From assembly GCA_964549935.1 (NCBI GenBank), contig CAZJVT010000003.1:78634-142633 (forward strand): a DNA stretch of 64,000 nucleotides. The letters run 5' to 3'. Below, in pieces: positions 4,501 through 59,289 of the stretch (the first letter of the stretch is position 1; each line of letters starts with the position of its first letter). The DNA comes from an uncultured Candidatus Saccharibacteria bacterium (GTDB lineage Bacteria; Patescibacteriota; Minisyncoccia; UBA6257; 1-14-0-10-44-23). A program made the position numbers and the translations under genes. The notes under the pieces are model-generated. The model was not told where the DNA came from and searched no databases. It saw only the letters and a list, made by a program, of their open reading frames with translations.

Positions 4501-4520
4501 TGCGAGAAGATCCTTCCCTG

Positions 4521-5346: not shown

Positions 5347-5439
5347 GGCGAAAACCCTGCGGCTCGGTGTCTGGTCCCGCCATTGTGCCACGCGGCGGCG
5401 AAAGCTCCAAACCTGTCGGCACATGCTTTTACAGCGTTC

Positions 5440-10429: not shown

Positions 10430-11077
10430 ATGTCCGCCAACACCGCCAAGCGCAGCCTTTCACTCGCCGCCGCCATGCTCGCGGCCACGCTCGTTTCCTC
10501 ACCGGCTTCCGCCGATCTCCGCAACATCATCCAGAGCCAGCTGCAGGGGCAGCTCCAGCAGCGCGCGATGCCCGGCGTCGCTGCCGGGGTCCCCACCATC
10601 CAGCGGCCGCAGGGCTTTGCGCCCAGCGCCTCCTTCCAGACCTGCTTCACGCCCGGCAACGACTGCACCGGGCTGATCGTGCAGACGATCCGCGAGGCGC
10701 GCAGCCAGGTCCTGGTCATGGCCTACGAGTTCACGTCCGATCCGATCGAGCAGGCCCTGCTCGACGCGAAGCGTCGTCGCCTCGATGTCCGTGTCGTCCT
10801 CGACAAGACCCAGACCCAGCCGAACCGGCGCTCGGCGCGCCTCTTCACCCAGACCGGCATCCCGGTCGTGATCGATGCGCAGCCGGCGATCGCGCACAAC
10901 AAGGTGATGATCCTCGACGGCGTGTCGGTGATCACCGGCAGCTTCAACTTCACGCTCTCCGCCCAGACGCGCAACGCCGAGAACGTGCTGATCGTGCGGA
11001 ACGCGCCCGAGCTCGCGCGGGGCTACATCGGCAACTGGGAAGCGCGCGCCCGGGCCAGCCAGGCGTTCGGAGGTTGA
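10430..11077 (+). CDS. nuc: Nuc-like phospholipase-D-family endonuclease with signal peptide
   Basis: The N-terminal region AAAMLAATLVSSPASA is signal-peptide-like. A single HKD motif HNKVMILDGVSVITGSFNFT (HxKx4Dx6GSxN) is present. Size and architecture resemble the plasmid periplasmic nuclease Nuc. RBS GGAGGAAG precedes the ATG. Confidence 0.7.
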   Translation: MSANTAKRSLSLAAAMLAATLVSSPASADLRNIIQSQLQGQLQQRAMPGVAAGVPTIQRPQGFAPSASFQTCFTPGNDCTGLIVQTIREARSQVLVMAYEFTSDPIEQALLDAKRRRLDVRVVLDKTQTQPNRRSARLFTQTGIPVVIDAQPAIAHNKVMILDGVSVITGSFNFTLSAQTRNAENVLIVRNAPELARGYIGNWEARARASQAFGG

Positions 11078-11671: not shown

Positions 11672-12241
11672 ATGCAAAAGATTCCCCATCATCGTGAGCC
11701 TTCCAATCTCACCTCGCTGATCTCGCGCGTCGACCCTCTGTCGCTCCGCGTAATCGCGACCTACATCGAGGCCGGCCGCCGCGGCCGCAAGATCGACTTC
11801 CTCGTCCACCAGGCAATGGCCGAACATCACCTGGCCCTCCAGGGGTGGCGCTATGGCCGTGCCGGCGAGCATCTCGCGATCGAGATCCGTCGACGCCTTG
11901 CCAAGCCGCGCCTTATTCATGGCGTCCCGCGCTACAGCACGTCCAAGGACGCGCTCGACGGGATCGTCCGGCTTCTCCTCCCGCAGGCTTCCATTACATC
12001 GTCCTTCGGCGCCGGCCGCTCTCGCATCGTCGCCGAGACGACCTATGCGAACACGCGTGGCGAAGCCTACATGACCAAGGCGACGGTTCCTGCCAGCAAC
12101 GATCCGGCAGCGGAAGCCGCGGCACGATGCGGCGCTGTCCTGCGCCTGGTAGCCGACATGGCGGTCGAGCGGAGGCGCTTTGCCGACGAGCAGTCCGAAG
12201 ATCGCGGCCGGGCGCCGAAGAAGCGGAACCCTCGCTCGTGA
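11672..12241 (+). CDS. Hypothetical protein, paralog B of a tandem pair
   Basis: Shares RYSTSKDALDGIVRLLLPQASITSSF and AAARCGAVLRL blocks with 11082..11591. Confidence 0.5.
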   Translation: MQKIPHHREPSNLTSLISRVDPLSLRVIATYIEAGRRGRKIDFLVHQAMAEHHLALQGWRYGRAGEHLAIEIRRRLAKPRLIHGVPRYSTSKDALDGIVRLLLPQASITSSFGAGRSRIVAETTYANTRGEAYMTKATVPASNDPAAEAAARCGAVLRLVADMAVERRRFADEQSEDRGRAPKKRNPRS

Positions 12242-13095
12242 CCTGCCGCCTTCCATCGGTCGATCTCGACAAGCGATGGCTCGATCGTCGCGAACGCTGG
12301 GCGCGGCCCGACGTCGTCTTCGATCCCCGCGGCTATGCGGTCGAGGTCGTGCCTGAGCGTCTCGCCCGGGATCTCGTCCTGGCCCATCACTACTCGGGAT
12401 CCTTCCCCGCGGCTCGCCTCTCCGTCGGCCTCTTCCGCAAGTCGGGTCCGGCTGCCGCGGCGGAGCTCGCCGGCGTCGCCGTCTTCTCCGTTCCTATGTC
12501 CTCCGCGGTGATCCCGGCACGCGTCGGCATTCCCGCTGCCGAGGGTGTCGAGCTCGGCCGCTTCGTCTGCCTGCCCGAGGTCGCCTTCAACGGCGAGACC
12601 TGGTTCCTTCGCCGCGCGCTCGCCGCCCTCCGCGTCGAGAAGCGAGAGGTTCGCGCGGTGCTCTCCTATGCCGACCCCCTCGAGCGATGGACAGAGGGCG
12701 GCCTCCTCTGCAAGCCCGCCCATTACGGCACCATCTACCAGGCCGGGAACGCGTCCTTCATCGGCCGCGCCAAACCCAGCTTCGTCGTCATGACCCGTGG
12801 AGGCCAGGTGGTCTCCGGCCGCTCGCTCTCGAAGATCAGGACGCAGGCTCGCGGCCACGTCTATGCGAGCGAGCAGCTCGAGGCCGCCGGCGCCGATCCG
12901 CGCCGACCGCTCGAGGATCCGTCCGACTGGCTTCGCCGCGTGCTGGTCGAGCCCGCCTTCGTGAAGGTCCGTCACCCCGGCAACTACTGCTATGCGTTCG
13001 GGCTCGATCGCGCGGTGAACCAGAACCTGAAGCCGCGGGCGCTCGCCTACCCGAAGAAGCCGACCCAGGCGCCGGAACTGGCGGAGGCCGCCTGA
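12238..13095 (+). CDS. Hypothetical protein with conserved HHYSGSFP motif (possible Mom-like/acyltransferase-fold enzyme, uncertain)
   Basis: GTG start overlaps the upstream stop (GTGA). The ORF-track entry 11845..13095 is an upstream run-on in the same frame. The protein has the LAHHYSGSFPAARLSVGLF and YCYAFG motifs. Confidence 0.4.
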   Translation: MTCRLPSVDLDKRWLDRRERWARPDVVFDPRGYAVEVVPERLARDLVLAHHYSGSFPAARLSVGLFRKSGPAAAAELAGVAVFSVPMSSAVIPARVGIPAAEGVELGRFVCLPEVAFNGETWFLRRALAALRVEKREVRAVLSYADPLERWTEGGLLCKPAHYGTIYQAGNASFIGRAKPSFVVMTRGGQVVSGRSLSKIRTQARGHVYASEQLEAAGADPRRPLEDPSDWLRRVLVEPAFVKVRHPGNYCYAFGLDRAVNQNLKPRALAYPKKPTQAPELAEAA

Positions 13096-14488: not shown

Positions 14489-15721
14489 ATGGACCCCAGA
14501 ACCAATCCCTATGCGCCCGGCGCCGGCTCCCAGCCGCCCGAGCTCGCGGGTCGTGACGAGATCCTGGAGAAGGCCGCGACCGCGCTCGACCGCATCAAGG
14601 CCGGCAAGCAGGCAAGGAGCCTGGTCCTCCACGGCCTTCGCGGGGTCGGCAAGACCGTGCTGCTCAACAAGATCCGGCGCGAGGCCGAGGCACGCGACAT
14701 CCAGAGCGTCGTCATCGAGGCGCCAGAGCATCGCTCCCTCCCCGGGATCCTGGTGCCGGCGCTGCGTGCCGTGCTGATCCGTCTCGATCGCGTCGAGGCC
14801 ACGAAGGCTATCTTCGGCAAGGCCAAGAAGGCGCTCGCCGGCCTGGCGAAGGCCGCGAAGGTGAAATACGAGGACGTCGAGTTCGGTCTCGACTTCGAGG
14901 TCGAGGACGGCCTGGCCGACTCCGGCGACCTCGAGCACGACCTGGGCGAGCTCTTCATGGCGGTCGGCGAGGCTGCCAAGGCGCGCAACACGGCGATCGT
15001 CCTCTACATCGACGAGGTGCAGTATGTGCCCGAGGAGCAACTGGCGGCCCTGATCTCCGCGCTGCATCGCGCGGCGCAGGAGATGCTGCCGGTGACCATG
15101 CTCGCCGCCGGCCTGCCGCAGATCCTGGGGCAGATGGGCAAGGCCAAGTCCTATGCCGAGCGTCTCTTCGAGTTCACCGAGATCGACAGCCTGGGCGCGG
15201 AGTCGGCGAAGAAGGCGCTCTGCAAGCCGGCGGAGGCCGAGAAAGTCACGTTCGAGCAGGGCGCGATCGACGAGATCCTCGAGCAGACCAAGGGGTATCC
15301 GTACTTCCTCCAGGAATGGGGCAAGCACAGCTGGAACATCGCGGCATCCTCGCCGATCACCGCGGCGAACGCGCGCGAGGCGACCAAGTCGGCGATCGCC
15401 GAGCTGGATGCGAGCTTCTTCAGCGTGCGCCTCGATCGCCTGGCGCCGGCGGAGAAGCTTTATCTCCGGGCCATGGCCGAGCTCGGGCCCGGACCGCACC
15501 GCTCGGGCGATATCGCCGCGAGCCTGGGCAAGCCGGTCAACCTCGTCGCACCTACGAGAAACAGCCTCATCGCCAAAGGTATGGTGTTCAGCAAGGCGCA
15601 TGGCGACACCGCCTTCACCGTGCCGCTCTTCGATGGCTTCATGAAGAGGGCCATGGTGTTCAAGCCCGAGGACGGACATAAGCGCAAGCGCGCGGCCGAG
15701 CCGAAGCCGCCGGGCATGTAG
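14489..15721 (+). CDS. AAA_16-type (Orc1/STAND-like) P-loop ATPase with C-terminal winged-helix-like region
   Basis: N-terminus NPYAPGAGSQPPELAGRDEIL then Walker A LHGLRGVGKTVLL. Walker B VLYIDEVQ. Confidence 0.65.
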   Translation: MDPRTNPYAPGAGSQPPELAGRDEILEKAATALDRIKAGKQARSLVLHGLRGVGKTVLLNKIRREAEARDIQSVVIEAPEHRSLPGILVPALRAVLIRLDRVEATKAIFGKAKKALAGLAKAAKVKYEDVEFGLDFEVEDGLADSGDLEHDLGELFMAVGEAAKARNTAIVLYIDEVQYVPEEQLAALISALHRAAQEMLPVTMLAAGLPQILGQMGKAKSYAERLFEFTEIDSLGAESAKKALCKPAEAEKVTFEQGAIDEILEQTKGYPYFLQEWGKHSWNIAASSPITAANAREATKSAIAELDASFFSVRLDRLAPAEKLYLRAMAELGPGPHRSGDIAASLGKPVNLVAPTRNSLIAKGMVFSKAHGDTAFTVPLFDGFMKRAMVFKPEDGHKRKRAAEPKPPGM

Positions 15722-16998: not shown

Positions 16999-17523
16999 TC
17001 AGGCACCCATCGCCATCGCCGGCGTACGCTCAGGCGATTTCACCATCGCCTCTATCTCCGCTCCATGCTTCTCGATCAGCCAGGCCGCGATCGAGGAGCA
17101 GACCTTCCATTTCCAGCCCTGGATCTCCTCGGACCTGGCCTTGGCGCCGATCGCGAGGCAGACCTTGAGGGCGTCGAGCGGCCCCGAGACATGTCCGGCT
17201 TTCGGCGACTCAGGCAGCCTGATGTTGAAGAGCGCGGCGGGGTCGGCTTCGACAGCCAGGTAGAGATCGTGGTCAAACCGGGCATCGACGGAAGCGCCAT
17301 GCTCGGAGACGAAGACCGCAAGCGTGTTGATGGCGTCCTTCCGTTGCTCGGCATCGAAGGCAAGATGCCCTTTCGCCAAGACCTCCGCCTGGATGTGGGC
17401 GATGCTCGCCGCATGAAGCACGACGGCCAGGGCGCCATCGACGGCGGTGCCGCCGCTTCGCTCCGACAGCAGAAGCAGGTCGTCGCGAGTCAGCTCGTCT
17501 TCGTAGGTTTTGGTCATCGCCAA
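16999..17523 (-). CDS. Hypothetical acidic protein, paralog 2 downstream of Fic
   Basis: The C-terminal block AAWLIEKHGAEIEAMVKS matches AAWLLKEHGATIESEVKT of 17528..18049. Same operon. Confidence 0.5.
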   Translation of the reverse strand: MAMTKTYEDELTRDDLLLLSERSGGTAVDGALAVVLHAASIAHIQAEVLAKGHLAFDAEQRKDAINTLAVFVSEHGASVDARFDHDLYLAVEADPAALFNIRLPESPKAGHVSGPLDALKVCLAIGAKARSEEIQGWKWKVCSSIAAWLIEKHGAEIEAMVKSPERTPAMAMGA

Positions 17524-17527
17524 TCTC

Positions 17528-18049
17528 CTAGCCGCCCATGGCCGGACCGATGTCGATTGTCTTCACCTCGCTCTCGATCGTCGCGCCGTGCTCCTTGAGC
17601 AGCCAGGCAGCTACAGCCGGAGCGACCACATCGCGAATGCTCCGCTTGTCGTCGTCACCTGAGGTGGCCACCTCGCCGGCTGCAAGCTCCAGACAGATCG
17701 CGAGAGCCTTCATCGGCGTCATCGTCCCACCATCTTCCGGGGTCGGCGCCGGCGAGTGCTCTATGTCCATGATCGAGGACGGATCGGAGCGGACGATCTC
17801 TACGAGGGCCGGCCCGAAGCGCTTGTCGAGCGCCTCGCCATGGTTGGTGACGAAATCGACGAGCGTTCTGATCGCCTCCTCCTGCCACTTCAGCTGGTCG
17901 ACCAGGCTGTCGTCGCCATGGTTGTCTTCCGGATCCATCTGGTTGCCCTGCGCGGCTTCGGCCACCGCCTCGAGAGCATCGGAGATCATCGTTCCGCTGT
18001 CGCTCGGCGGAAATCCGGCGGGGCGCCGCGGGGCCTCTTCGAGACTCAT
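17528..18049 (-). CDS. Hypothetical acidic protein, paralog 1 downstream of Fic
   Basis: Its start overlaps the Fic stop (ATGA). Paralogous to 16999..17523. Confidence 0.5.
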   Translation of the reverse strand: MSLEEAPRRPAGFPPSDSGTMISDALEAVAEAAQGNQMDPEDNHGDDSLVDQLKWQEEAIRTLVDFVTNHGEALDKRFGPALVEIVRSDPSSIMDIEHSPAPTPEDGGTMTPMKALAICLELAAGEVATSGDDDKRSIRDVVAPAVAAWLLKEHGATIESEVKTIDIGPAMGG

Positions 18050-19746
18050 GGTTCCAATCCCTTCTGTTTCCTGGAAGATGGATCTGCCGGCTCCGGCGTC
18101 TTGCCGCTGACCGGAATTCGGTGGTCCATCGCAACGGCGACTGCGCGCTCGGCCGCTGCGACCTGGGTGTCGTCGAGATCGGCGAACAGGCTCTTGCGCT
18201 TCTTCTTCGAGAGCGCTCCGCCGTTCTCGTGGATCAGCTTTGCGAGAAGCTCGGCATTATCCTTTGGCATGCCCGTCGCGCCGCGTACGCCGGCGACGGC
18301 GTCGTCGAATCCCTCGATGAAGGCGATCTCGTGGGGCAGGTCGCGCTCGACCGTCTGCTCGACGCACCGGTAGAGGAATTCGGTCTGCCGGGTGAGATCC
18401 ATGTAGCGGTAGTGACGGCCGCGGGCCTCGCCGCTTCCGGCGCCCTTGACCTTGAGGGCCCCGTCGTCGTCGAGCGACCATGACAGGCGATCCAGAAGCG
18501 GCCGCGAGAAGCCCTCGAGGGCGCGGTCGTAGCCATCCATGTCGCGAAGCATCGCCGCCGATACCGGGAGGATGCCGCCCTGGGGCGTATAGCCGGTCGA
18601 GGCCAGGGTCGAATGCACCAGGAAGCGGCTGGTCCGGCCGTTGCCGTCCTCGAAGGGGTGGATGTAGACGAGCCCGAACTTGAGCAGGGCGGCGACGACG
18701 ACCGGATCCGTGCCGGCGCCCGCCAGGCGATTGGCCTGCGCCACCAGGCCGCGCATCATGCCGCCGACCTGCGCCGGATCCGGGCTGATGTAGTCCACCA
18801 CCCCGCGGTTGCCGCCGCCGCTCCGCTTGAAGACGTAGTTCGACGTGTTGCGGTAGCCTGTCCTGCGATCGGTGCCGGCGAGAACCTCGGCGACGACGTT
18901 CTGGATCTCGTGCTCGGATAGCTGGGGCGCGCCGCCTCGTCGGCCCTGGGACCCGGCGGATCGCGCCAGCATCTGGACGAAGCGCCGCTCCTTTTCCGGA
19001 CTGGGCTTCTCCTGCTCGATCGCGAAGCTGTCCCTGGTCTCCTTGGCGAAGAGCCAGCCGGCGGCGCGGCGCGCGGTCTCTGGATCGGCTTCAGCGACGA
19101 TGCGGCGGGCACGGCCGGACAGGTCCAGGGCGCGCATCGACTCGATCTCGCCGGTGATCCACACCATCGGGCACCATTCGGGCGTGCCAGGCATGTTGTC
19201 GACGACATGGTGGCGGCGCGATCTCGTGCCCATCGCCGGCGCCACCTGCATCTTCACGTCGATCGCCGGGACGTAGAAGCCCTCGATCGCGCTGTCGGGC
19301 AGCTCGAGCTGGCGGCCGGTGAGCCATTCGGCGAGGAACCAGGCGCGCCTGGCATGCCGGCCGGTCGGTTCCGACCGCACCCAGTCGGCGACATGACGGC
19401 CGGCGAGATCGGAGGCTGGGGATGCCTGGAAGAGGTCGGCGAGGACAGCGAGGTTCACGCCTTCGTTGCGAAGGGCGAAGTCAAGGTGCCAGGCGAGGAA
19501 CCGCGGGTCCTCGCCGCCGCCGAGAGCGTCCGGCTTCGGTGCCTGGTGCGGACGATGGCGGATCCAGGTCCTGCCGCTGATCGGGTCCTCGATCTCGGCC
19601 TTCTTCCAGCTGTCGCCGGTCGAAGCGCAGCGCAGCGGCCGATCGACGATCGGGTCGAGGCCGTAGGCCGCGATCAGGGCCGCATAGCCGAGGGGGACGG
19701 TGCCGGTCGGGGATTCCATGACCATCGCAGGATCGTTATGGAGCAC
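18046..19746 (-). CDS. Fic/Doc-family protein (probable AMPylase) with a long N-terminal domain
   Basis: Canonical Fic motif HPFEDGNGRTSRFL. The start is uncertain (GTG at 19746, or ATG at 19722/19716). The antisense ORFs are Arg-rich. Confidence 0.75.
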   Translation of the reverse strand: MLHNDPAMVMESPTGTVPLGYAALIAAYGLDPIVDRPLRCASTGDSWKKAEIEDPISGRTWIRHRPHQAPKPDALGGGEDPRFLAWHLDFALRNEGVNLAVLADLFQASPASDLAGRHVADWVRSEPTGRHARRAWFLAEWLTGRQLELPDSAIEGFYVPAIDVKMQVAPAMGTRSRRHHVVDNMPGTPEWCPMVWITGEIESMRALDLSGRARRIVAEADPETARRAAGWLFAKETRDSFAIEQEKPSPEKERRFVQMLARSAGSQGRRGGAPQLSEHEIQNVVAEVLAGTDRRTGYRNTSNYVFKRSGGGNRGVVDYISPDPAQVGGMMRGLVAQANRLAGAGTDPVVVAALLKFGLVYIHPFEDGNGRTSRFLVHSTLASTGYTPQGGILPVSAAMLRDMDGYDRALEGFSRPLLDRLSWSLDDDGALKVKGAGSGEARGRHYRYMDLTRQTEFLYRCVEQTVERDLPHEIAFIEGFDDAVAGVRGATGMPKDNAELLAKLIHENGGALSKKKRKSLFADLDDTQVAAAERAVAVAMDHRIPVSGKTPEPADPSSRKQKGLEP

Positions 19747-19790
19747 GCAAAATCGTTATGGAACACGCAAATTCATTATGAAGACGAGAG
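19732..19790. repeat. 20-bp tandem direct repeats at the Fic 5' end/promoter
   Basis: ATCGTTATGGAGCACGCAAA (19732..19751), ATCGTTATGGAACACGCAAA (19752..19771) and a partial third copy TTCATTATGAAGACGAG. Confidence 0.6.
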
Positions 19791-19922
19791 GAGAAAGCGT
19801 CAATGGATAGATGGATTAATCGCGTAGCTATAGAAGATGCTCTCCTGAAACCGCAATTTTTTGACGCCAATTTCGCATCCGCTCGCCTTCTTGGTTTCTG
19901 TGTGCTCTGCTAAACTAGGTGG

Positions 19923-22900
19923 ATGCACGATAAATCAACCGTCAGGCCCTCCCTCCCCGCCGTCCAGATGGCTACAGGCAGCGGTTCTGGGCCGGATGTC
20001 GAGGCCATGCCGCTCCCGGAGCTCCAGCCGGGCCAGTATTGGCGTGCCAACAGGGAGATGCCGGAGGGCGACCGCGGCCGGGAGTGGTCGGGGGCCTGGG
20101 AGGTCGGCTTTTCCTACCTGGTCAAGGACCTGAAGGTCGTCGACGGGCGCCTCCATACCGTCGTCCTGCATCCCCATCCGCTGAGCGACTACCAGCACGA
20201 CACCGAGATGCTGGCCCGGCATTTCTTCGCCGCGTTCGAGCGCGATCTCGATCCGGACGTGTCCCGTGCCGCCGACATGAAGGCGCTGCAGGAACGCATC
20301 GGGCAGATCAACCAAGAGATCGCCGACGGCCCGAGGCTGGAGGATGTCTCGACCGCCGCCCAAAGGCGCCTGATCGAAGCCGGCACGGCAACCCCTCGGC
20401 CGGAGGCGGCCGGCGCAGGCGCTCTTTCCATCAGCGAGACCGATATCCAGAAGGCGCAGAAGCGTTCGGGCGCCCTGCTGGAGGTCAGCAAGAAGAAGGC
20501 CGCCTGGCTCCAGCAGCGGGTCGAAGCCGTCGGCGAGACCGCCAGCCGGATCGCTCTCTTCGGCCGCGAGAAGGCGGAGACCGCCCTTGCCCAGGTCAAG
20601 GACGTGCTGCGATACGCGCAGCACCTCGAGGAAGGCATCGAGACGCTCGGCCTCTACACCGGCAAGGACGTGCAGGTGCAAATGCTGTGCGACGGGCCGC
20701 TCGCCTCCGACGATGCGCCGCTTTCGATCTTCCAGCGCCGTCTCTACATGGACGAGGAATTCCTTGTCCATCTGGCGGAGGGTGGCGCCACCTGGCGTGA
20801 CGTCGAAAGCTTCGGCAAGGCGCTCGGTGAAGACGAGACGCTGCTGGACCGCATCATCCCGTCGGAACGCGGCGTCGTCTGCATGCGCTATCGGCGCCAC
20901 GAGAAGCAGATCGATCTCGGGGAATTCAAGACGGTGGCCGAGGCTTTCAGCGCGGGCCTCAAGGCGCAGGAAGAAGAGGCCCGCAACAGGACGACTTTCC
21001 TCCTGATCCGAGACGGCCGTCGCGTTTGGCAGGTCTGGTCCGAGATCTCGACCGACAACAGCCCGCGCCTGTTCCCGACGATGAAGGAAGTCGACAAGCC
21101 GTTCGTCGGATGGGGCTGGCACGGAGAGGAGAAGCAGCGGATCGACCTCGAGGACATCCGGTTCTCCGACAAGCTCGAGGAAAGTCGGCGGATCCAGCTG
21201 CACTATCGCCGTCTGCTGATCCTGCTCTGGGGACTCGACGATCGCGAGAACCTGGTCGGCCTCCGCCGCTCGGGTGATACGCGCAAATTCACCGACCTCT
21301 CCTTCCAGAAGGACCGCTTCGTCTTCATTTCCGACGATGACGAGGAGCGGCTTCTCAGCACCGGCCGCCCGTCTTTCAGAAAGTTCGCCGCCGAGCACAA
21401 CGCCATGCTTCGTTCCGGCTCCCGTGTGCTTTGCCTCTGGGGAAACCTACTCACGAGCGATACCGCGCCCGGCTGCGTGAAGTCGATCGATCGACGGTCG
21501 AGCCACGGTCCGCGCGACGAGGTCAGGCTGTGGCCCGACAACGACACCGACATCCTGATTGCCAGGAAGGATGGCGACGAGATCGTCGTCGACGTCGAGG
21601 CGTCGGGCGAGAAGCGCAGCTGGATGTACGACCGATACGAGACCTCGGGCCAGACGCGTCGCATCAAGGCGCGCGTGAGCCTGACCGCCTACAGGGAAGC
21701 AAGCATCGGCTTCCTTGTGCTCGACGCGATCAAGGCCGAGGATTTGAAGTTCTACTGCGAGTCGCGACTCGAGCGGCAGAGCTATCTCCACTACCTCTCC
21801 ACGTTCATTGCCGCCCGCAAGCATGTCGAAACCGTGCGCGAGGCCGAAGTCGAGTCCCGCGATGTGCTCGCCAATGGCCTGAAGGCGGCGGGCTTGTTCG
21901 ATGACGAGCGTTGTGCCGGCGTCCTCGACGAAGCGATCCTCGCTTGGCGCGCACGGAACCGCGGCAAGGCGTTGCCCGGTCCGCTCGATCCAGAATGGAA
22001 GGCTGCCGCGACCGCCATCTACGGCTTCTGCTGGATCGCGCTCGGCAAGGATATCGACCTGGAGCCGATCGCGACCGACCTCGCGGCGAAGGGCGGCCGC
22101 AAGCCGCTGCGCCTGGTGCTGACAGGCAACAACCAGGTGATCCTCTATGCGTCCTCGACGGCGAACGAGATGCAGGACGCGCTCGGGAACTGGCCATGGG
22201 TCACCCGGATCGCTTGCCGGCGACTGCGGAAGGCACCATGGCTGGCGGTCGAAGGAGAAAGCTTCGCCATCCTCCCGGCGCGCGCCGCGGACGAGCGCGT
22301 GCTGACCGAATGGCCGGAGGCGACGAAATGGATCGACCTCGTCGATCACGACAAGATCGGCCCCGATGGCAGGCGCGAGCTCGTTGCCTGGCTTAGAGAC
22401 GCCGCCGCGGCTGCTCCTCAGCTGATCGCGCCCTCCCGCCATCTGGTCGAGACCATGCTGAAGGAGGCGACCGAGCTCAGCCGCCTGAACTCGAAAGGAA
22501 TGGTGAGGCGGCCCGACGTCGTGATCCCGTTCGCGATCGTCAGGAAGAAGGAAGTGGAATTCCGCCAGCCGGACGCATGTCGTGTCCTCGCAATGCGCAT
22601 CGATGCCTTCTGGTGGTGCTGGCGCCATGGGCTTGCCGCGGAGACCGAAGAGGCTCTGAGGGGGCGTTACAGCAGGCCGGGGACGCATGTCCGGCAGCTT
22701 CGCGGCGAAAACGATCCGGAAGGCGAGGATCGCGCCTGGTCGGGAGACTTCGAGGCGTCGCTGGTCTCGTTGTCGTCCAAGGATGTGGTCAGGGCTCTCG
22801 ACGATGGGCAGAGCCTCCCGAACCTCATCGATGCCCATGTCTACGACAGCGTTCCGATCAACGAAGGCCACTTCGAAGCCCTGCAGGACATCCTCCGCGA

Positions 22901-23165
22901 TGGCCGTAGCAACTGGATGTTCGGGGAGAGGTTCGCCTACCGCAAGAATCGATCGAAGCCTGCTGCCTGGGACTTCGTTTTGAAGATCAAGGACGCCTGG
23001 GCGCTCGCCGTTCCGTTCAGCGACAGCTCCCGACGTCCCGGGAAGCCGGCCCCGAAGCCGGAAGCGGATGACGAGGCGGAGCAGGAGGACGCCAGACCGG
23101 CCGAGCAGGACGATGAGGATGATCAGGATGACGGGCCCGCAGCGCAGGAGGATCTGAATCCATGA
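19923..23165 (+). CDS. Large hypothetical protein (1080 aa) with an acidic C-terminal tail
   Basis: Continuous ORF with natural composition. Both long antisense ORFs are Arg/Gly/Pro-rich. -35/-10-like TTGACG...GCTAAACT lies upstream. No motif recognisable by eye. Confidence 0.6.
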   Translation: MHDKSTVRPSLPAVQMATGSGSGPDVEAMPLPELQPGQYWRANREMPEGDRGREWSGAWEVGFSYLVKDLKVVDGRLHTVVLHPHPLSDYQHDTEMLARHFFAAFERDLDPDVSRAADMKALQERIGQINQEIADGPRLEDVSTAAQRRLIEAGTATPRPEAAGAGALSISETDIQKAQKRSGALLEVSKKKAAWLQQRVEAVGETASRIALFGREKAETALAQVKDVLRYAQHLEEGIETLGLYTGKDVQVQMLCDGPLASDDAPLSIFQRRLYMDEEFLVHLAEGGATWRDVESFGKALGEDETLLDRIIPSERGVVCMRYRRHEKQIDLGEFKTVAEAFSAGLKAQEEEARNRTTFLLIRDGRRVWQVWSEISTDNSPRLFPTMKEVDKPFVGWGWHGEEKQRIDLEDIRFSDKLEESRRIQLHYRRLLILLWGLDDRENLVGLRRSGDTRKFTDLSFQKDRFVFISDDDEERLLSTGRPSFRKFAAEHNAMLRSGSRVLCLWGNLLTSDTAPGCVKSIDRRSSHGPRDEVRLWPDNDTDILIARKDGDEIVVDVEASGEKRSWMYDRYETSGQTRRIKARVSLTAYREASIGFLVLDAIKAEDLKFYCESRLERQSYLHYLSTFIAARKHVETVREAEVESRDVLANGLKAAGLFDDERCAGVLDEAILAWRARNRGKALPGPLDPEWKAAATAIYGFCWIALGKDIDLEPIATDLAAKGGRKPLRLVLTGNNQVILYASSTANEMQDALGNWPWVTRIACRRLRKAPWLAVEGESFAILPARAADERVLTEWPEATKWIDLVDHDKIGPDGRRELVAWLRDAAAAAPQLIAPSRHLVETMLKEATELSRLNSKGMVRRPDVVIPFAIVRKKEVEFRQPDACRVLAMRIDAFWWCWRHGLAAETEEALRGRYSRPGTHVRQLRGENDPEGEDRAWSGDFEASLVSLSSKDVVRALDDGQSLPNLIDAHVYDSVPINEGHFEALQDILRDGRSNWMFGERFAYRKNRSKPAAWDFVLKIKDAWALAVPFSDSSRRPGKPAPKPEADDEAEQEDARPAEQDDEDDQDDGPAAQEDLNP

Positions 23166-23545
23166 GCCGCAAGCAGTATCCTTTGATCCTCTCGGCACCC
23201 GACGCGCTGCGCGAAGCGGCCGCGGCGATCGTCGACCCGGACGCCCGCTTCCTCACCTGGCTCGACGGCAATCGCGCGACCGCGAATTGGCAGGCGACGC
23301 ATGCTAGGCAGAAGTCCGACCCGATCATCGAGCTGATGCTGCCTTCCCTTCTGGCCGGCATCGAGCTCGCCAAGGAAGGCGTGGCGTCTTCGGATCCCGG
23401 GATCCGCGGCAAGTCCGCGGCCTTCCTCGAAGCCGCGAGCGCCATCGGGTTCGATTTCCGAAATACGTTAGCAAATTTGTTAACAGATTCCGGAATTTCG
23501 ACCATTTCGACTTCTTCTCCCAGCCAATCGGAGCCTTCTCCATGA
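23162..23545 (+). CDS. Hypothetical protein (middle gene of the 3-gene operon)
   Basis: ATGA overlaps at both ends. Its 3' end is a low-GC stretch carrying a TTCCGGAAT motif and a GTTAAC palindrome. Confidence 0.45.
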   Translation: MSRKQYPLILSAPDALREAAAAIVDPDARFLTWLDGNRATANWQATHARQKSDPIIELMLPSLLAGIELAKEGVASSDPGIRGKSAAFLEAASAIGFDFRNTLANLLTDSGISTISTSSPSQSEPSP

Positions 23546-24759
23546 GCCTCTCCATGATCGACCCGATGCGCTTTCGGACGGCGATGGAGGAGATCCGTCG
23601 CCGCACCCACAACCAGGGCGAGGAGGCGGTGAAGGCCGCGGTCCAGGAATGGATCGAGGGTGCCTTCTCCGAGTTCGAAGGGACGGTCCGCCGCTTCCGG
23701 CGCGGTCCGGAAATCTTCGATGCCCGACTGCCCTTCGCCGAGGAGGGTGGGCTCGCGGCCTTCAGCACCGTCTCGCTCGGCAACTGGATGGAGGTCGCCG
23801 CCGTCGCCGGGGTCCCTGCGATCCAGGCCGACTTCCTGGGATGCCTGCCGCTCACGCCTCTTCTCGGCATGGCGGATCCCGGCGATCTCGAGGCCGCATC
23901 TCGGAACGAGACCTTCAAGAAGGTGGCCGCCGACATCGAGGCGATCGTGAGTAAGGTCCCTGACGGCCATATTCTACGCATGGACGCGGCTGGCGGCGCC
24001 GAGCTCAAGATGGCGATGGCCGAGGGCTCCATGGATCCGCTCGCGGCGCGGCCGCGGGCGCGCGGTTTCATCGAGCACGAAGGCAAGCGCTTCATGGATC
24101 TCGACGATCCGCGCTTCTTCGAGATCCTGATGTCGTATCCCGAGGACGCCGTGCCGATGTGGTCGCGGCCATGGATGCAGGCGAAAAGGCGCGCCGGCAC
24201 CAACCAGTGGGGCGAGCCCGGTAGCTTCCCACGCGAATGGCGCGTCTTCATCGCCGAGTCCCGGATCGTCGGCATCAGCAATTACTACCCGCAATCGCCG
24301 ATGACGATCCGCGAGCTCGATGTCGAGGTGATCAACGCGGTCACGTCGCGTGCGATCTCGATGATCGGCGCGATGAAGGCCGGGCGCGTGCGGCCGTTCC
24401 ATCCGACCTATACCAAGGAAGTGGCGCCGAACGACATCTGCTGCAGCCTCGACTTCATGGAGGCCGAGGACGGGCGGCTCCTTTTCCTCGAGGGTGGTCC
24501 GGGCCATCTCAGCTTCTGGGGAGCGTCGGGCTGCTGCTTCGGCGAGAAGTCGCCGATCCGCGGCGTCGCGCTCGCGGCCGGCAAGCCTCCGACGATGCAG
24601 GCGGCGTTTCCGATCGAGCTCGAGCATTTCCCTGAGATCGCCGTCATGATGAAGGCGCGCGTCGCTAAGCGCGCCGAGGACATCGCTCAGATGATGGATC
24701 TCGCCGAGCAGGTGCGGGGCGCAGCTAAGGAAGAGAAGAGCGAGATGGCGATCGCGTGA
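23542..24759 (+). CDS. ATP-grasp-like protein (R2K-clade-like, DUF4343-like), tentative
   Basis: The C-terminal half contains the EWRVFIAESRIVGISNYY pattern, reminiscent of phage/plasmid ATP-grasp families. Confidence 0.4.
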   Translation: MSLSMIDPMRFRTAMEEIRRRTHNQGEEAVKAAVQEWIEGAFSEFEGTVRRFRRGPEIFDARLPFAEEGGLAAFSTVSLGNWMEVAAVAGVPAIQADFLGCLPLTPLLGMADPGDLEAASRNETFKKVAADIEAIVSKVPDGHILRMDAAGGAELKMAMAEGSMDPLAARPRARGFIEHEGKRFMDLDDPRFFEILMSYPEDAVPMWSRPWMQAKRRAGTNQWGEPGSFPREWRVFIAESRIVGISNYYPQSPMTIRELDVEVINAVTSRAISMIGAMKAGRVRPFHPTYTKEVAPNDICCSLDFMEAEDGRLLFLEGGPGHLSFWGASGCCFGEKSPIRGVALAAGKPPTMQAAFPIELEHFPEIAVMMKARVAKRAEDIAQMMDLAEQVRGAAKEEKSEMAIA

Positions 24760-24988: not shown

Positions 24989-25147
24989 ATGGGCATGCCA
25001 TCCGTTGAAGAGATCGAAAAGCTGCTGAAGCGGTTCAAAGTGACGAGGCGTCCTGGGGATTTTCCAGCCCCCGACCTCATCATCACGCTCAAGGACAAGC
25101 TCGACTCCGATCACCTCTGGTCGCGGTTCATTGCGATCCGATCGAGC
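24989..25147 (+). CDS. Possible small protein (53 aa)
   Basis: ATG with AAGAGGG RBS 7 nt upstream. Not in the ORF track because it is under 60 aa. Coding status uncertain. Confidence 0.2.
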
Positions 25148-25250
25148 TGAATCTCGCATCGTTGGAACGGGCGGCTTCGGCCGCCCGTTCCTTCCTCGCC
25201 GGCCCCTTGCTGGCCGTGCTTGTCCGGAAGCCATGCTAGTCTTTGCCGCC

Positions 25251-29488: not shown

Positions 29489-31969
29489 ATGAGCACCGCC
29501 AGTGCAGCCCATCCAGGAAGAACGAACGGGGATGCCATGCCCGAGAACAAGACCCCGGAAGCCGCGGCGACTGGCTTCGACCAGCTGAACGAGTCCCAGC
29601 AGCGGGCAGTCCTCGCCCCTCTGGACAAGCCCTCCCTGGTCCTGGCGGGGCCCGGCACCGGCAAGACCAAGACCCTCGTCGAGCGCTGGATCCACCTCAC
29701 TCGGGAAGGGGTCCGCCCGGCGCGGATCATGACGACCACCTTCTCGAAGGACGCAGCGAGCGAGATGAAGGAGAGGATCTCGAGCTCCGCGCGCATCGCC
29801 ACCGACAAGCTGCCCATTTCCACGCTCCATTCCGCGGCCTTCAGCCTCCTTCGCCAGTCGGCCGGCCTTCATGGCGTTCCCGCCAAGGTCTCGGTCGCGG
29901 ACGAGGCGACGTCCAGGGGCATCCTGTACGACCTCAGTATCTTCGCCCGCGAGGACGACGACATCCTCGACCAGTTCAGCAGATGGAAGGACCGTCTGGT
30001 GACGCCGGAGATGGCGATCGCCGACGCCGAGAAGGCGCGCGACAAGCGGATGGAGGAGATCGCCCGCCACTACGCCACCTACCAGGCCGAGCTGGCGCGC
30101 CGGGGTCTGTTCGATTTCGGCGACCTCATTCTCGAGGCGGTGAAGGCGCTCGAGGGTTCGGACCGGCTCCGCGAGCAGTGGCAGGGGCGCTACGACCACC
30201 TCCTGCTCGACGAGTACCAGGACATCAATCCGGCCCAGGATCGCTTCATCAATTGCCTCTGGACCCCGGGCAAGGGGCTCTGGGTCGTCGGCGACGACGA
30301 CCAGTGCATCTACGCGTTCCGCTCGGCGGACTCCAATTTCATCCTCGACTACGCGGCCCGCTACGGCGAGGCGATCGGCGAGGAGGTCGAGGTCTTCAGG
30401 CTCGATCGCAACTATCGCTGCTCGCCTTCGATCATGTCGGCGGCCTCGGCCGTCATCGCCAACAACGAGCGCCGGCTGCCGAAGCAGATCGTCGCCACGC
30501 GCGACTACGACAACGGCGTCTTCCTGCATGGTTTCGACAACGCCCATGACGAGGCGCGCTTCGTCGCCCGCCAGATCCGGATGCTGTTGGACGGCGGCTT
30601 CAAGCCGAAGCAGATCGCTGTCCTGATGCGGGCAGGCTTCGTTGCCGTCTACATGCAGGCCGCGCTCCAGAAGGAAGGCATCCCCGTCGTCATCAAGGGT
30701 GCCGCTGATTTCTGGGGGTCGGCCGAGATCAAGGCCGCCCTCGGTGCGCTCCGCCTTTCCGTCGACCCGAAGGATACCGCCGCCGGCGGCCTTTGCCCTG
30801 CCGGCAAGCGCGGCGAGAGCCTGAAGAAGGCGGCAATGGACCTCGCCGACGAGAAGGACCTCGCCTGGCCGCAGCGTGTCGCCGCGATCAAGGCCGCGCT
30901 CGATGCGATCCCGCCTCGCGTGGGCGGCGAGGAACGTCGGATCCAATGGGACGAAGGCGTCGCCGCGGCCTGTCGCATCGCGATCGATCTCGGGAACCTC
31001 GACGCTCTCCTAAAGGAAGTTCAGGCACAGCAGCGCAAGGAGAAGGTCGACGAGTCGGAGGCGGTTCCTCTCTCGACGATCCACGGCGCCAAGGGCCTGG
31101 AATGGGACACCGTCTTCGTCGTCGGCGTCGAGGACCAGCTTCTCCCCCACAAGCGGGCGGAGGACATCGAGGAGGAGCGCCGGCTCTTCTACGTCGCCCT
31201 GACGCGCGCCATCCGGCATGCCTGGGTGACCTATGCGCTCGAGCGCGGCGAGGACACGACCGCCGCGTCCCGCTTCATCGCCGAGATGCTGCCCGGCCTC
31301 GAGCCGGGAAAGCTGACGGCATCCGGCCGCGCCAGGGACATGATGGTCGAGCTGATGGCGGCCCGCCGCCAGGCCAGGGCGGATTATCCTGAAGAGAGGC
31401 GGCCGGCCGACGGCGCTGCCGATCGCGGTCGGGCCGAGCCCGGCCGTCAGGAGGCGGGCTTTCCGGTCCACGACGAGATCGAGGCGATGATCCGCGGGGA
31501 AGCGGATCGGAAGCCACCGCAGGCGAAGGCCGTCCGGCCTCCCCGTGCCGGGGGCTTTGCCGCCATGCGCAACGACACCCCGCCGCGCCGCGCGGCGACG
31601 GATGTCGCCAGGATCCATGCGGATCGCGCCCCGCCGCCGCCGACGATCGACCTCCCTGCGTCCCGAGAGTCTTCCGCCATCACCGTGCCCGGCGCCCCGG
31701 TCCGCGTCGCGAAGCCGGAAGCCCTGCAGCGATACCTCGAGGGGCTGAGGAAGGCGCCCGCATCGGGCCAGCCTTGGGACGAGCAGGCGACGGAATTCCT
31801 CAGGCAGTCCTTCCGCCGGCGCCCCGCCGCCGAGATCGCCCGCCAGCTGGGCCGCACCGAGGCGAGCGTCGCCTACCGCCTCCTCGGCATCGGCCTGATC
31901 GACGAGAACGAGTGCCAGCTCATGCTTCGCAACATCGAGCAGACCGGGACGCCTTCGCCGACGGCCTAG
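29489..31969 (+). CDS. UvrD/Rep-family superfamily-1 DNA helicase with C-terminal HTH-like extension
   Basis: Motif I LAGPGTGKTKTL, motif II LLLDEYQDINPAQ, motif III VVGDDDQCIYAFRSA, motif IV NYRCSPSIM, motif V TIHGAKGLEWDTVFVVG, motif VI YVALTRA. Confidence 0.8.
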   Translation: MSTASAAHPGRTNGDAMPENKTPEAAATGFDQLNESQQRAVLAPLDKPSLVLAGPGTGKTKTLVERWIHLTREGVRPARIMTTTFSKDAASEMKERISSSARIATDKLPISTLHSAAFSLLRQSAGLHGVPAKVSVADEATSRGILYDLSIFAREDDDILDQFSRWKDRLVTPEMAIADAEKARDKRMEEIARHYATYQAELARRGLFDFGDLILEAVKALEGSDRLREQWQGRYDHLLLDEYQDINPAQDRFINCLWTPGKGLWVVGDDDQCIYAFRSADSNFILDYAARYGEAIGEEVEVFRLDRNYRCSPSIMSAASAVIANNERRLPKQIVATRDYDNGVFLHGFDNAHDEARFVARQIRMLLDGGFKPKQIAVLMRAGFVAVYMQAALQKEGIPVVIKGAADFWGSAEIKAALGALRLSVDPKDTAAGGLCPAGKRGESLKKAAMDLADEKDLAWPQRVAAIKAALDAIPPRVGGEERRIQWDEGVAAACRIAIDLGNLDALLKEVQAQQRKEKVDESEAVPLSTIHGAKGLEWDTVFVVGVEDQLLPHKRAEDIEEERRLFYVALTRAIRHAWVTYALERGEDTTAASRFIAEMLPGLEPGKLTASGRARDMMVELMAARRQARADYPEERRPADGAADRGRAEPGRQEAGFPVHDEIEAMIRGEADRKPPQAKAVRPPRAGGFAAMRNDTPPRRAATDVARIHADRAPPPPTIDLPASRESSAITVPGAPVRVAKPEALQRYLEGLRKAPASGQPWDEQATEFLRQSFRRRPAAEIARQLGRTEASVAYRLLGIGLIDENECQLMLRNIEQTGTPSPTA

Positions 31970-32530: not shown

Positions 32531-35500
32531 GTGACGGGCCCTGACATGACCTTGCAGAAATGGATCGACCTCTCGGCTTACGGGGTGTCCCTCATCCTGG
32601 TCACCCTGCCGAGCGGCAACCAGCTCATGGTGATCGACGGGCATCAGAACTCCCCGCACAAGGAATTGATCCAGAAGAGCTTTCTGTCGCTCGGGTACAA
32701 CCTGTCGAAGGCGGGTTTCCTCTACAGCGACAACATGAAGATCTCGCCCTCCGCGGTCTTCAGGCTGCTCCCCAAGGGCAAGGTCGCGGAGATGCCTGTC
32801 TCGCAGATCCGCCAGAGCTGGCGTCCGCCCGGCTCCCAGGCGGACCAGCCGAAGGCCCAGCCCGGCCGCGTCTCCGCAACAGGTCCCCGGAAGTCCGCTG
32901 CCCGCGTCCGCGCGCCCGAGCCGGCGCGCCTCGACGTAGCGCTCACCCAGCATCGCCGCCTCGGCCTCAACTCGCTGGGCCAGGAGGTCTTCGAAGGCAT
33001 CGACGGGCGCTTCATCCGCGACCAGGGCGGCAAGCTTCACCGCGAGGCCGAGGTAGGCAACATCACGCCGGCCCTGTTCCTGCGTGCCGAGGCTCAGCCG
33101 CCCCACAAGGGGCTCGATGTCTGCGCCGACGGCCTGGTCAACGAGATCGCCGGCGGCCGCATCATTCGCTTCGACGACCTGAAGCGTTTCGCCGCTGCGG
33201 TCATGGGACAGGCAGACGAGGATATCGAGGACCGGGATCCGCGCGTCCGCCTGGCCGTGGATGCCGTTGCCGACGCGATGCAGCGCCGGGTGGCGCGCCG
33301 CATGGGTTCCAGTCGCGAAGTCTATGCGCTGGCGACCCAGCTGCAGGAAGCCGGGGCCTTCCTCTCCGATGCCACCCGCGTATTCGGGCCGCTCGGCCAC
33401 CCCAGCCTCCCGATCCTCTCGATCCTGCAGCGCGCGATCGGCGGCGAGAGCGAGGTCGGCAACAAGAAGATCGCCATCATCGGCGCCCACGGCCGCGCCG
33501 CCGACATCCTGGCATCGAACCTGCCGGCGACCTCCGAGATCGGCCGCGACGAGCGGCATGCCCTCTACCAGATCGGCCTCCTGCCGCCGGACACGAACTA
33601 CCATGTCGAGATCGACGAGATCGTCGGCGCCCGCGGGCCGGCCGGCCGCACCCTTCTCGTCTTCGCCGGCGATCCAGAGGCCGACGAGGCGATCAAGGCT
33701 CTTCGGACCCGTCTCGGCGAAAGCTACGAGATCGAGGGAACGGCCCGCATCGATCCCTCTCTCCATGCCGGCGACCCCGGTGCCCAGCCGCTGACCCTGA
33801 TCGCGCTCGGCCGCCTGCGGCCCGAACGCCTGCAGCCGGCGCCGGAGGCTTCCCTCCGCGTCCAGCCCATCTCCTCGCATGCCGAGCTCTGGACCTGGTC
33901 CTCCGAGCTCATCTCGACCCGGGCGAAGATCGCCGAGTGGCGCCGGATGCAGGACGACGAGGTCGACGAGGCGCAGCAGCTCCTCGCCGGCAATGTCGAC
34001 CGGACGCTCGAGAACAAGTTCCAGACCCCCTACCAGCCGCTGTCGCGGGCCTCCCTCTCGCGCACGATGATCCCCCGCAGCCTCGAGGGCGCCACCCGCG
34101 AGGCGCTCGAGCGGCTAGCGCGCCGGCATGGGGACATCGACCGCATGGTCTGCGAGGAGCTCGGCTGGACGAACGAAGAGCTGCAGGAGCGGCTTTCGGC
34201 GGAGCAGGTCGACGGCTTCGCGCTCTCGATCGACGCGGAGATGCGCGGCCGCGGCATGCTGATCGCCGACCAGACCGGCGTCGGCAAGGGCCGCCAGATC
34301 GCCGCGATGATCCTTCGCCATGTCCTCGCCGGCCGCAAGGTCATCTTCCTGACCGAGCGCGAGCTGAACCTCCACGACATCTGGCGCGACATCTGCCATA
34401 TCCGCGCCGACGGCTTCATCTCGCCGCTGATCCTCAACGATGGCGTCCGCATCGTCGATGACCTGACCACCGAGACGCTTCTCTCCCCGGTGCCGACCGA
34501 GGAGATGAGGGAGATCCTCCGATCGGGCAAGTGGCCGGAAGGCTTCAACGTCGTCCTCGGCACCTACAGCCAGTTCAACCGGCCGGCGCTCGGCCGCGGC
34601 GGCAAGCTCGTTTCCCTGAAGTCGAAATGGCTGCGCGAGACGGTGACCGCCGGCAGCGGCATCGTCGCGGTCGCCGACGAGGTCCATAACCTCGCCGCCA
34701 AGGAGTCGAACCAGCTCAGCAACATCGACGCCGTCCTCAACAACTTCGAGCACGTCCACTACTCGTCCGCCACCCACGCCAAGACCGGCACGACGCTTCG
34801 CATCTATCGGCGCCTGATGCCGCCGTCGGTGTCGATGAACAACATCATCGACACGATGTCGAAGGGCGGCGAGCTGCTGCAGGAGGTCTTCACCTCCATG
34901 CTGGCCAAGGACGGCGTCATGATCCGCCGCGAGCTCGACCTGTCGGAGGTCGAGTTCGAGGTCTATCACGACAGCGACCACTACGACCGCAACCGCGCGA
35001 TCGTGAACCAGATCGCGCCGATCCTGGCGGCGATGGCCAACATCTCGGGCGAGGTCGACGGCTTCGTCGCGCGCATGGACAAGGACATCGAGGAAGCCCT
35101 TGCCAACGTCGGCGACGACGAGCGGGAGCAGATGAAGGGCAAGCTCGGCGTCTCCAAGCTGTCCTTCGGGTCGCCCTTGCACCACATGACGCGACTCCTG
35201 ATCGCTGCCCTCAAGGCCGACGCCGTGGTTGCCAAGGCTCTCATCGCGCTCGACAAGTCGATGAAGCCGATGATCGTCATCGAGAACACGATCGAGACGC
35301 TCCTCAAGGACATCGTCGCCACCCGCGGCGACGACGGTCAGCGCGTCGACGTCGCGGACGATGCGCTCGAGGGCGTCGAGATGCCCGACTTTCGATCCCT
35401 CTTCCATCGCATGCTCAACCAGGTCTGCAAGATCCGCGAGAAGGTCGACGGTGTCTGGCATACGCGCGACCTGGCCCAGGAGATGCCCGACATGGCCGAG

Positions 35501-54312: not shown

Positions 54313-54325
54313 AGGCAGAGACCCC

Positions 54326-59191: not shown

Positions 59192-59289
59192 GGGTGGTCG
59201 CCCCGATTTTTCGCCATCTTAGCGAGTTTTCGGAGCCACTTCTCCAACTTGCCTCTCGGAGCTTTCTCCGCCAGCTGATACCTTCCACT

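Follow-up and report, generated by a model that had tools for sequence, protein, structure and literature searches.

A three-gene block in a Saccharibacteria mobile-element array probably joins independent cargo genes, one from an abundant uncharacterised family and one a divergent R2K-like ATP-grasp ligase

Introduction

Do three genes that lie end to end in a crowded gene array form a system, or are they neighbours without a common history? We considered this question for a block at positions 19923-24759 of a 64,000-nucleotide stretch of contig CAZJVT010000003.1 (assembly GCA_964549935.1), which belongs to an uncultured Candidatus Saccharibacteria bacterium; the whole stretch is called the window below. 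The block encodes proteins of 1080, 127 and 405 amino acids (aa), referred to here as the large protein, the small protein and the ATP-grasp protein, and a first-pass annotation made from the sequence alone had singled out the trio as a candidate for an undescribed system. We consider it likely that three independent cargo genes have come to lie side by side in this lineage, within the accessory array of a large mobile element, and that they do not form an evolutionarily linked system. The features of the block, with the predicted local distance difference test score (pLDDT) as a measure of predicted disorder, are as follows.

19747..19922, no strand: intergenic region from which the fic operon (minus strand) and the three-gene block diverge
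19923..23165, plus strand: gene for the 1080-aa protein (list of open reading frames and translation)
20013..22322, plus strand: conserved core of the large protein, residues about 31-800 (176-sequence MAFFT alignment)
22887..23162, plus strand: variable, predicted-disordered C-terminal region of the large protein, residues 989-1080 (pLDDT <50)
about 23043-23162, plus strand: acidic tail of the large protein, at the end of the disordered region
23162..23545, plus strand: gene for the 127-aa protein, its ATG overlapping the stop codon of the large gene (ATGA)
23542..24759, plus strand: gene for the 405-aa divergent R2K-like (Cdc123-like) ATP-grasp ligase, its ATG overlapping the stop codon of the small gene (ATGA)

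Results

Co-occurrence of the three genes

How often do the three genes occur together elsewhere? We gathered 65 loci by exact look-up, by scans of genomes and metagenomes and from plasmid and phage records, and searched their stop-to-stop open reading frames (ORFs) with hidden Markov models (HMMs) of the trio. A relative of the large protein was present at 57 loci, a relative of the ATP-grasp protein at 10 and a relative of the small protein at 2; more than one member of the trio was found only in the window's own element (L001) and in one other element (L006). L006 is a close relative (65% identity) that is fully syntenic with the window's element. It also has the divergent Fic gene, followed by a first small ORF, both similar in size to those of the window (Fic, 569 aa, followed by ORFs of 172, 113 and 251 aa). 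Because L006 also has the Fic operon, we regard it as an orthologous element region, which makes one independent observation in all. Beyond this case, the co-occurrence in independent genomes that would mark a conserved three-gene system was not found. With 57 and 10 loci overlapping in these two elements only, and linkage to the ATP-grasp gene not conserved, the proposal of an undescribed three-gene system did not hold up.

The neighbourhoods of the individual genes were also compared. After collapse at 90% identity, 48 distinct large-protein genes were obtained. None of the 19 non-self full-length large-protein loci with at least 2 kb of downstream sequence (0/19) has the small gene or an ATP-grasp gene nearby, and clustering of the neighbours within 5 kb revealed no family common to loci other than closely related ones. 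The ORFs directly downstream of the large gene carry no Pfam domains and are unrelated at phmmer E<=10 beyond near-identical elements, which rules out a fast-evolving, positionally conserved small partner in that position. An ATP-grasp HMM match upstream of the large gene at one locus (L033, E 0.008) has no Pfam support and was taken as noise. Likewise, no homologue of the small protein was found at the 8 other ATP-grasp loci. A megablast search of the block against PLSDB gave no match, and neither did any block protein match PADLOC-DB v2 (systems up to 2023) at E<=1.

The large-protein family

The large protein is a cytoplasmic, stand-alone member of an uncharacterised family, whose members are roughly 1000-1150 aa long. 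In an exhaustive profile search, 2339 cluster representatives (clusters counted at 50% identity) matched at E<=1e-3, of which 1449 matched at <=1e-30, and nearly all among the best 150 profile matches listed are full-length; a word-index search had found just 48 relatives. The window protein (P0001) covers positions 20-955 of the 1001-position profile. Its colinearity with hundreds of full-length homologues of 950-1190 aa rules out that the large ORF is a fusion of frameshifted fragments, a doubt that the first-pass annotation had raised against its own reading.

By tblastn, 1253 PLSDB plasmids carry the family, of which 1084 are conjugative (by genus, Klebsiella 552, Enterobacter 207, Escherichia 127, Citrobacter 109 and Salmonella 89), with a coverage of 72-78% on IncHI and other plasmids. 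Members of the family include the following.

IncHI1A plasmid p99063: WP_000502663.1
IncHI2A plasmid pEh60-2: WP_000502666.1, with the same umuDC-dsbA synteny as on p99063
MOBH plasmid pCFR-4109: a member of the family
Pseudomonas plasmid pMRCP2 (L064): a member of the family
Agrobacterium protelomerase plasmid pEL101-131, a phage-plasmid that also has a prohead gene: a member of the family
Jumbo phage Tunturi_5, 309 kb: gp128

Every database record of these and other members reads 'hypothetical protein'. A literature search on the IncHI1 protein accession found no paper, and one on anti-defence in the IncHI leading region found nothing about the large gene.

Is the large protein a part of the conjugation machinery? 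In a test for type IV secretion system or relaxosome components, the protein matched no Tra model of Pfam or NCBIfam, and the loci examined have no tra genes as neighbours. The family also extends to large siphoviruses, a jumbo phage and a protelomerase phage-plasmid, and this rules out the assignment. Carriage by phages argues against a conjugation-specific role and, because the carriers represent every transmission type (conjugative plasmids, islands resembling integrative and conjugative elements (ICEs), a phage-plasmid and jumbo phages), the role of the protein is not conjugation as such. The first-pass annotation had named, as what would speak against a system, that the large protein prove to be a known structural or conjugation component with no conserved linkage to the ATP-grasp gene; of these two points, the absence of linkage was borne out and the known component was not.

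The sequence of the large protein gives no match to any model of Pfam, NCBIfam, PADLOC or PHROGs, in agreement with the earlier remark that it has no recognisable motif. Pfam scans of 43 family members taken singly yielded no recurrent weak match, and scans of ten shorter or plasmid relatives yielded nothing. No nuclease, NTPase, TIR, Sir2 or protease domain is recognisable in the protein. The family profile matched PDB sequences at the level of noise only (14-3-3, E 0.05), and a search of BFVD returned a single match, an uncharacterised phage homologue.

In the 176-sequence MAFFT alignment, about 25 polar residues, many of them Arg, are near-invariant (columns at least 90% conserved; invariant columns are also seen in alignments A1 and A2) and are scattered over residues 37-800: H78, H85, R115, E118, E216, Q271, E278, E279, D290, R316, N355, R363, Y428, R430, R441, D471, N493, S500, R501, D601, R615, R618, R676, Y742 and E791. 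The final ~280 residues are unconserved, with a column conservation of about 0-0.07 past residue 920. This pattern suggests that the large protein is an enzyme or a tightly constrained binding protein, and it would suit either.

The acidic tail noted in the first pass is real, with 19 D/E versus 7 K/R in the last 60 residues. A net tail charge of <=-8 is found in 13 of the 177 family members; the tail is a lineage trait, not a family feature. One other acidic-tailed member, P0045 (L062), has no ATP-grasp gene nearby. These two observations rule out the tail as a family-wide ligase substrate.

A shorter sister family, of about 550-890 aa, has in common with the large protein roughly residues 100-500 only, and this common part may be a functional core module. 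The loci of the short family (L012-L018, L038-L052 and L067; e.g., L015 9407-11371) belong to Pseudomonas megaplasmids, Paraburkholderia, Saccharibacteria and 130-170-kb siphoviruses, namely Mesorhizobium phage Cp1R7A-A1, Erythrobacter phage vB_EliS-L02 and Flavobacterium phage MaF61. At L040 (3868-6333), an intein carrying a DUF559/MTES_1575 endonuclease domain splits a UvrD-type helicase gene 3 kb upstream of the short-family relative, and homologous helicases lie upstream in L041, L043 and L027.

Around the family as a whole, the recurring neighbour themes are RNA and DNA ligases, UvrD-type helicases, topoisomerase III, DnaB, UmuDC, HNH and anti-restriction genes. Genes for RNA ligases (window 54248-55393, L062, L066 and L061) are found repeatedly in the vicinity of large-protein relatives, with three in L062 and gp134 in jumbo phage Tunturi_5, and also of an ATP-grasp relative on an Erythrobacter plasmid, which hints at RNA-repair or counter-defence arrays.

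The ATP-grasp protein and the small protein

What kind of enzyme does the third gene encode? The sole Pfam matches of the 405-aa protein are weak and below the gathering thresholds of both families: R2K_3 (PF14243; E 2.5e-4, 21.7 bits vs a cutoff of 26.3) and R2K_2 (PF18299; E 1.3e-3, 19.1 vs 26.2). Scans against NCBIfam, PADLOC and PHROGs gave no match, and the precomputed R2K matches of its homologue P0051 are flagged as faint. An AlphaFold2 model of the protein (pLDDT 81.5; predicted template modelling score, pTM, 0.83) was compared with the PDB by Foldseek. Human and S. pombe Cdc123 came out on top (E about 3e-6), with LysX next-best; lower matches were D-Ala-D-Ala ligases (Ddl), PurK, biotin carboxylase and the graspetide ligases PsnB and MdnC (E about 1e-4). 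There were 95 matches at E<=1e-3, and the best 50 of the 95 are all ATP-grasp enzymes. On the strength of the model and these matches, the predicted ATP-grasp fold is solid and the nearest characterised clade is R2K, so that the first-pass description 'ATP-grasp-like' was right. A search of PDB sequences with the ATP-grasp profile gave nothing significant (Cdc123 at E 1.8).

The R2K families have been proposed to act in phage-host conflict as ligases that modify proteins (Burroughs, Zhang & Aravind 2015, PMC4431377). Their hallmarks are an 'absolutely conserved' Lys at the end of RAGNYA strand 2, a second Lys/Arg in the next loop and, in the kinase-like domain, a strand-4 acid and an ExN motif at the end of strand 5, which is ExGD in R2K.3; an Arg is typical of amide-forming ATP-grasp ligases (PMC4431377). 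A word-index search returned just 13 relatives, and the 405-aa protein was aligned with 12 homologues (alignment A3, 13 sequences). First, R146 is invariant on the predicted RAGNYA strand 143-147 and K156 is invariant ten residues on, these positions being set from predicted secondary structure and not from a residue-level superposition on Cdc123. Second, R234 is invariant (13/13), lies in E232-W-R234 on the predicted strand 232-238 (the first kinase-like strand) and answers to the Arg of amide-forming ligases. Third, D304 is invariant, as the strand-4 acid of R2K would be. In the place of the ExN or ExGD motif, all 13 sequences have E317-G318-G319-P320, with no Asn or Asp. On these comparisons, with EGGP matching neither ExN nor ExGD, we call the protein a divergent R2K-like ATP-grasp ligase and do not assign it to R2K.2 or R2K.3. 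It also has helical extensions at the N-terminus (residues 1-60) and the C-terminus (364-404). In this group, C331 is invariant and adjoins a near-invariant C332 and then an invariant F333; together with the invariant EGGP that replaces ExN, this leads us to ask whether catalysis in the group is conventional.

By analogy with Cdc123, RimK and LysX, and with the R2K proposal, the protein is most likely an ATP-dependent carboxylate-amine ligase, which would add an amino acid or a peptide to a protein carboxylate. Its relatives occur without either partner on 5 IMG/VR viral contigs and on 6 plasmids, mostly alphaproteobacterial; one of them stands alone in a phage early region, adjoining YqaJ and Lar (L007). 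A search of the INPHARED phages gave no match.

The small protein is an orphan. Among 5.8 billion proteins, its sole homologue is P0197 of L006 (130 aa, 67% identity), and it has no family match in Pfam, NCBIfam, PADLOC or PHROGs. Its C-terminus is Ser/Thr-rich, with TIS...EPSP conserved in the L006 copy, and the stretch D109-E124 is poorly conserved between the two known copies.

Layout of the block and coding evidence

Are the three ORFs genuine genes? The first-pass layout of ORFs of 1080, 127 and 405 aa joined by ATGA overlaps was confirmed by coordinates, junctions, codon composition and substitution pattern. Both junctions read ccATGAgc, with a start/stop overlap of 4 nt each, and a Shine-Dalgarno-like GGAG/AGGAGG stands 9-12 nt before the start codon at both. 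The GC contents at third and second codon positions (GC3/GC2) are 0.83/0.45 for the 1080-aa gene, 0.73/0.54 for the 127-aa gene and 0.86/0.47 for the 405-aa gene; because GC3 is high and GC2 is low in a window of 65% GC, the three ORFs are real genes. The ratios of nonsynonymous to synonymous substitution (dN/dS) versus L006 are 0.33, 0.51 and 0.15, respectively, and indicate that all three are under purifying selection. No hydrophobic segment is present in any of the three proteins.

The public gene call of the large protein (P0001, 1052 aa) starts at M29 (20007). Because the 28 residues before M29 are conserved in P0002, the other large protein that adjoins an ATP-grasp gene, the longer ORF with its start at 19923 is plausible. 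The region 19747-19922 presumably holds the promoters of both the fic operon and the trio: it contains a minus-strand sigma-70-like match at 19803-19775, and a simple scan found no plus-strand promoter in it, the trio promoter thus being putative. Two 20-nt tandem direct repeats, CGCAGGATCGTTATGGAGCA and CGCAAAATCGTTATGGAACA (85% identical, window 19726-19765), mark the 5' end of fic on the minus strand and fall in the divergent region that fic shares with the large gene. A third, degenerate copy may come next, and the repeats could be an operator or regulatory site. On the other side of the block, a perfect 12-bp GC-rich hairpin, GGAACGGGCGGC-TTCG-GCCGCCCGTTCC (window 25164-25191), directly follows a 51-aa ORF (24995-25150). 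Because this is the first strong terminator-like structure downstream of the three genes, their transcript may reach it.

Surroundings in the window

Mobile-element accessory genes fill the window as a dense array, most of them on one strand. The block had been placed in an island of defence and anti-defence genes, and we count this setting as supported in the sense of such an array, which holds Fic, PLD nuclease, Mom-like, STAND NTPase, UvrD, Sbno-type helicase, topoisomerase III, RNA ligase, primase and Lar genes. The annotated neighbours are as follows.

2960-5422, minus strand: 820-aa ORF with a central YqaJ-like recombinase/exonuclease domain (E 1.6e-6)
7482-10265: 927-aa DEAD/ResIII helicase with six HA 'helicase-associated' domains (PF03457, E 5e-103)
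10430-11077: PLD-type nuclease, after the HA-domain helicase
about 12238-13095: Mom-like gene (PF25680), upstream of the STAND NTPase
14489-15721: 410-aa AAA_16/nSTAND-type NTPase
18046-19746, minus strand: Fic gene, 566 aa (PF02661, E 1.5e-13), divergent from the block
29489-31969: UvrD, downstream of the block
32531-37606: 1691-aa Sbno-type helicase (AAA_34 and Helicase_C_4), downstream of the block
37619-39994: 791-aa protein with no family match
40547-42868: topoisomerase III with a C-terminal DUF5710, downstream of the block
54248-55393: RNA ligase, downstream of the block
59194-60690: DnaG-type primase, downstream of the block
61435-62067: Lar, downstream of the block

The Fic neighbour was correctly recognised in the first pass. 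Behind it, in the same orientation, come ORFs of 173 and 174 aa that match no family. The three, at 16999-19746 on the minus strand, may form a Fic module with uncharacterised partners. The 410-aa NTPase could be a defence-type sensor. The gene model of the 820-aa YqaJ-like ORF is uncertain, its GC3 being just 0.73 and other ORFs overlapping it. The large-protein homologue on the Pseudomonas plasmid pMRCP2 likewise has a DUF5710 protein and a UvrD helicase encoded close by. Many other window ORFs are without family assignment, and the ORFs scanned included no conjugation or virion genes. Judged from this gene company, which is not proof, the element would be an ICE or a large plasmid, whose host would have a high GC content and probably belong to the Alphaproteobacteria.

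Discussion

How might the block have come about, if its genes are independent cargo? We propose that the large gene is a widespread autonomous unit, beside which the ATP-grasp gene and the orphan small gene would have landed in one lineage. The three genes would share one transcript and be translationally coupled here without being linked in evolution. Tight ATGA packing is common in mobile-element gene arrays. The many Arg, Asp, Glu and His residues that are invariant in the large protein, and the genes that recur around it, lead us to suggest, with low confidence, that the protein, probably an enzyme or a factor that binds nucleic acid or protein, works inside the host cell to establish or maintain large mobile DNA or to counter defences against it.

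Several observations weigh against this account. First, the 4-nt overlaps and the Shine-Dalgarno-like motifs are kept in both trio-bearing elements, as expected for proteins made in fixed proportion. Second, both large proteins that adjoin an ATP-grasp gene, that of the window and P0002, have acidic low-complexity tails, and ligases of the RimK and LysX types typically act on acidic C-termini. Third, genomic context was sampled for about 50 of more than 2300 clusters, so that a minority sub-clade with linked ATP-grasp genes could be missed. Fourth, the neighbourhood themes are loose, and most neighbours are themselves hypothetical.

Could the trio then be a genuine three-component system restricted to this lineage, with the ATP-grasp protein attaching amino acids either to the large protein, at its acidic tail, or to the small one? 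Such ligation would tune an activity of the large protein, with stoichiometry enforced by the ATGA coupling, in analogy with the action of RimK on ribosomal protein S6, of LysX on LysW and of TTLL enzymes on tubulin. The conserved overlaps at both junctions, the acidic tails of the window protein and P0002 in a family where just 13 of 177 members have one, the place of LysX among the top structural matches and the purifying selection on all three genes are consistent with this. However, the trio has been seen in one independent occurrence, and L006 is syntenic with the window well past it, so that the two acidic tails are not independent either. None of the 19 other full-length loci has the partners, the acidic-tailed P0045 manages without an ATP-grasp gene, and the ATP-grasp relatives live in phages and plasmids without either partner. 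The terminal Pro of both upstream proteins, moreover, is a by-product of the CCATGA overlap. We therefore regard such a system as unlikely. Also improbable, in our judgement, is a combined case in which the large family has a new enzymatic or counter-defence activity for establishing large elements and the EGGP-bearing R2K-like ligase, acquired in this lineage, modifies the acidic tail or the small protein.

It is less probable still that the block is an anti-phage or anti-plasmid defence module, or one of a toxin-antitoxin-like kind, with the large protein as sensor or effector and the ATP-grasp protein as modifier. The array does hold a Fic gene, a STAND NTPase and a PLD nuclease, and a role in phage-host conflict is what has been proposed for R2K families (PMC4431377). 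Against this stand the lack of any PADLOC match for the block proteins and the lack in the large protein of the effector-type domains listed above. The large family is, besides, a stable backbone gene of IncHI1/IncHI2 plasmids and is also found in large and jumbo phages of lytic type; because of this carriage, a function that benefits the element fits better than host immunity.

A pair making a ribosomally synthesised and post-translationally modified peptide (RiPP) of the graspetide kind, in which the ATP-grasp protein cross-links the Ser/Thr- and acid-containing C-terminus of a 127-aa precursor and the large protein is unrelated, would account for the small ORF directly upstream of the ATP-grasp gene, for its conserved Ser/Thr-rich TIS...EPSP end and for PsnB and MdnC among the fold matches, but it is very improbable, because Cdc123 and LysX and not graspetide ligases are the best fold matches, the putative precursor has one homologue in total and none at the 8 other ATP-grasp loci, a protease, a transporter and a repeated core motif are all missing, and 127 aa is long for a RiPP precursor.

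What, then, does the block tell us as a set of independent cargo genes? As a three-gene system it is of little import, its linkage not being conserved. What is new consists of members of existing families, one uncharacterised but abundant and the other a divergent offshoot of a clade already described. The large protein represents a dark family that is very abundant and has no name, no Pfam model and no solved structural relative. Because the gene is kept by elements of such different lifestyles, it probably does something general for large mobile DNA. IncHI1 and IncHI2 plasmids, which are among its carriers, spread multidrug resistance in Salmonella, Klebsiella, Enterobacter and E. coli. The ATP-grasp protein extends the Cdc123-like R2K clade by a small phage- and plasmid-borne group with an invariant EGGP in place of the metal-binding ExN, and this variant bears on whether such R2K-like enzymes are active ligases and on what they modify.

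How do these proteins compare with known systems? The ATP-grasp protein resembles the Cdc123/R2K clade in its best solved fold match (Cdc123), in its only Pfam matches (R2K_3 and R2K_2, both weak) and in the invariant R234 and D304; the invariant basic pair R146 and K156, placed by predicted secondary structure, may answer to that of the clade, and its sporadic distribution in phages and mobile elements is like that of R2K.2 and R2K.3. It differs from the clade in scoring under the Pfam thresholds, in having Arg where R2K has its 'absolutely conserved' Lys, in having EGGP versus ExN or ExGD (R2K.3), and in its own helical N- and C-terminal extensions. RimK and LysX/ArgX are ATP-grasp ligases that lengthen a partner protein at its acidic C-terminus. 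The block shares with them the ATP-grasp fold class and an acidic-tailed protein encoded directly upstream of the 405-aa gene; in contrast, there is no sequence-level similarity, and the partner linkage of the 405-aa gene is not conserved.

For the large protein, no known polyvalent-protein domain or anti-defence family was found, unlike in the polyvalent or large accessory proteins and leading-region anti-defence genes described elsewhere (PMC11541004), which it resembles as a large cytoplasmic protein encoded beside Lar, Mom-like and methylase-helicase genes. The IncHI ORFs WP_000502663.1 and WP_000502666.1 and gp128 of Tunturi_5 stand alone, without the small gene or an ATP-grasp gene, and most lack the acidic tail; the IncHI ORFs are syntenic with umuDC and dsbA, not with fic. 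Yet these proteins, of 1100-1125 aa, are 26-31% identical to the large protein of the window over 72-78% of its length.

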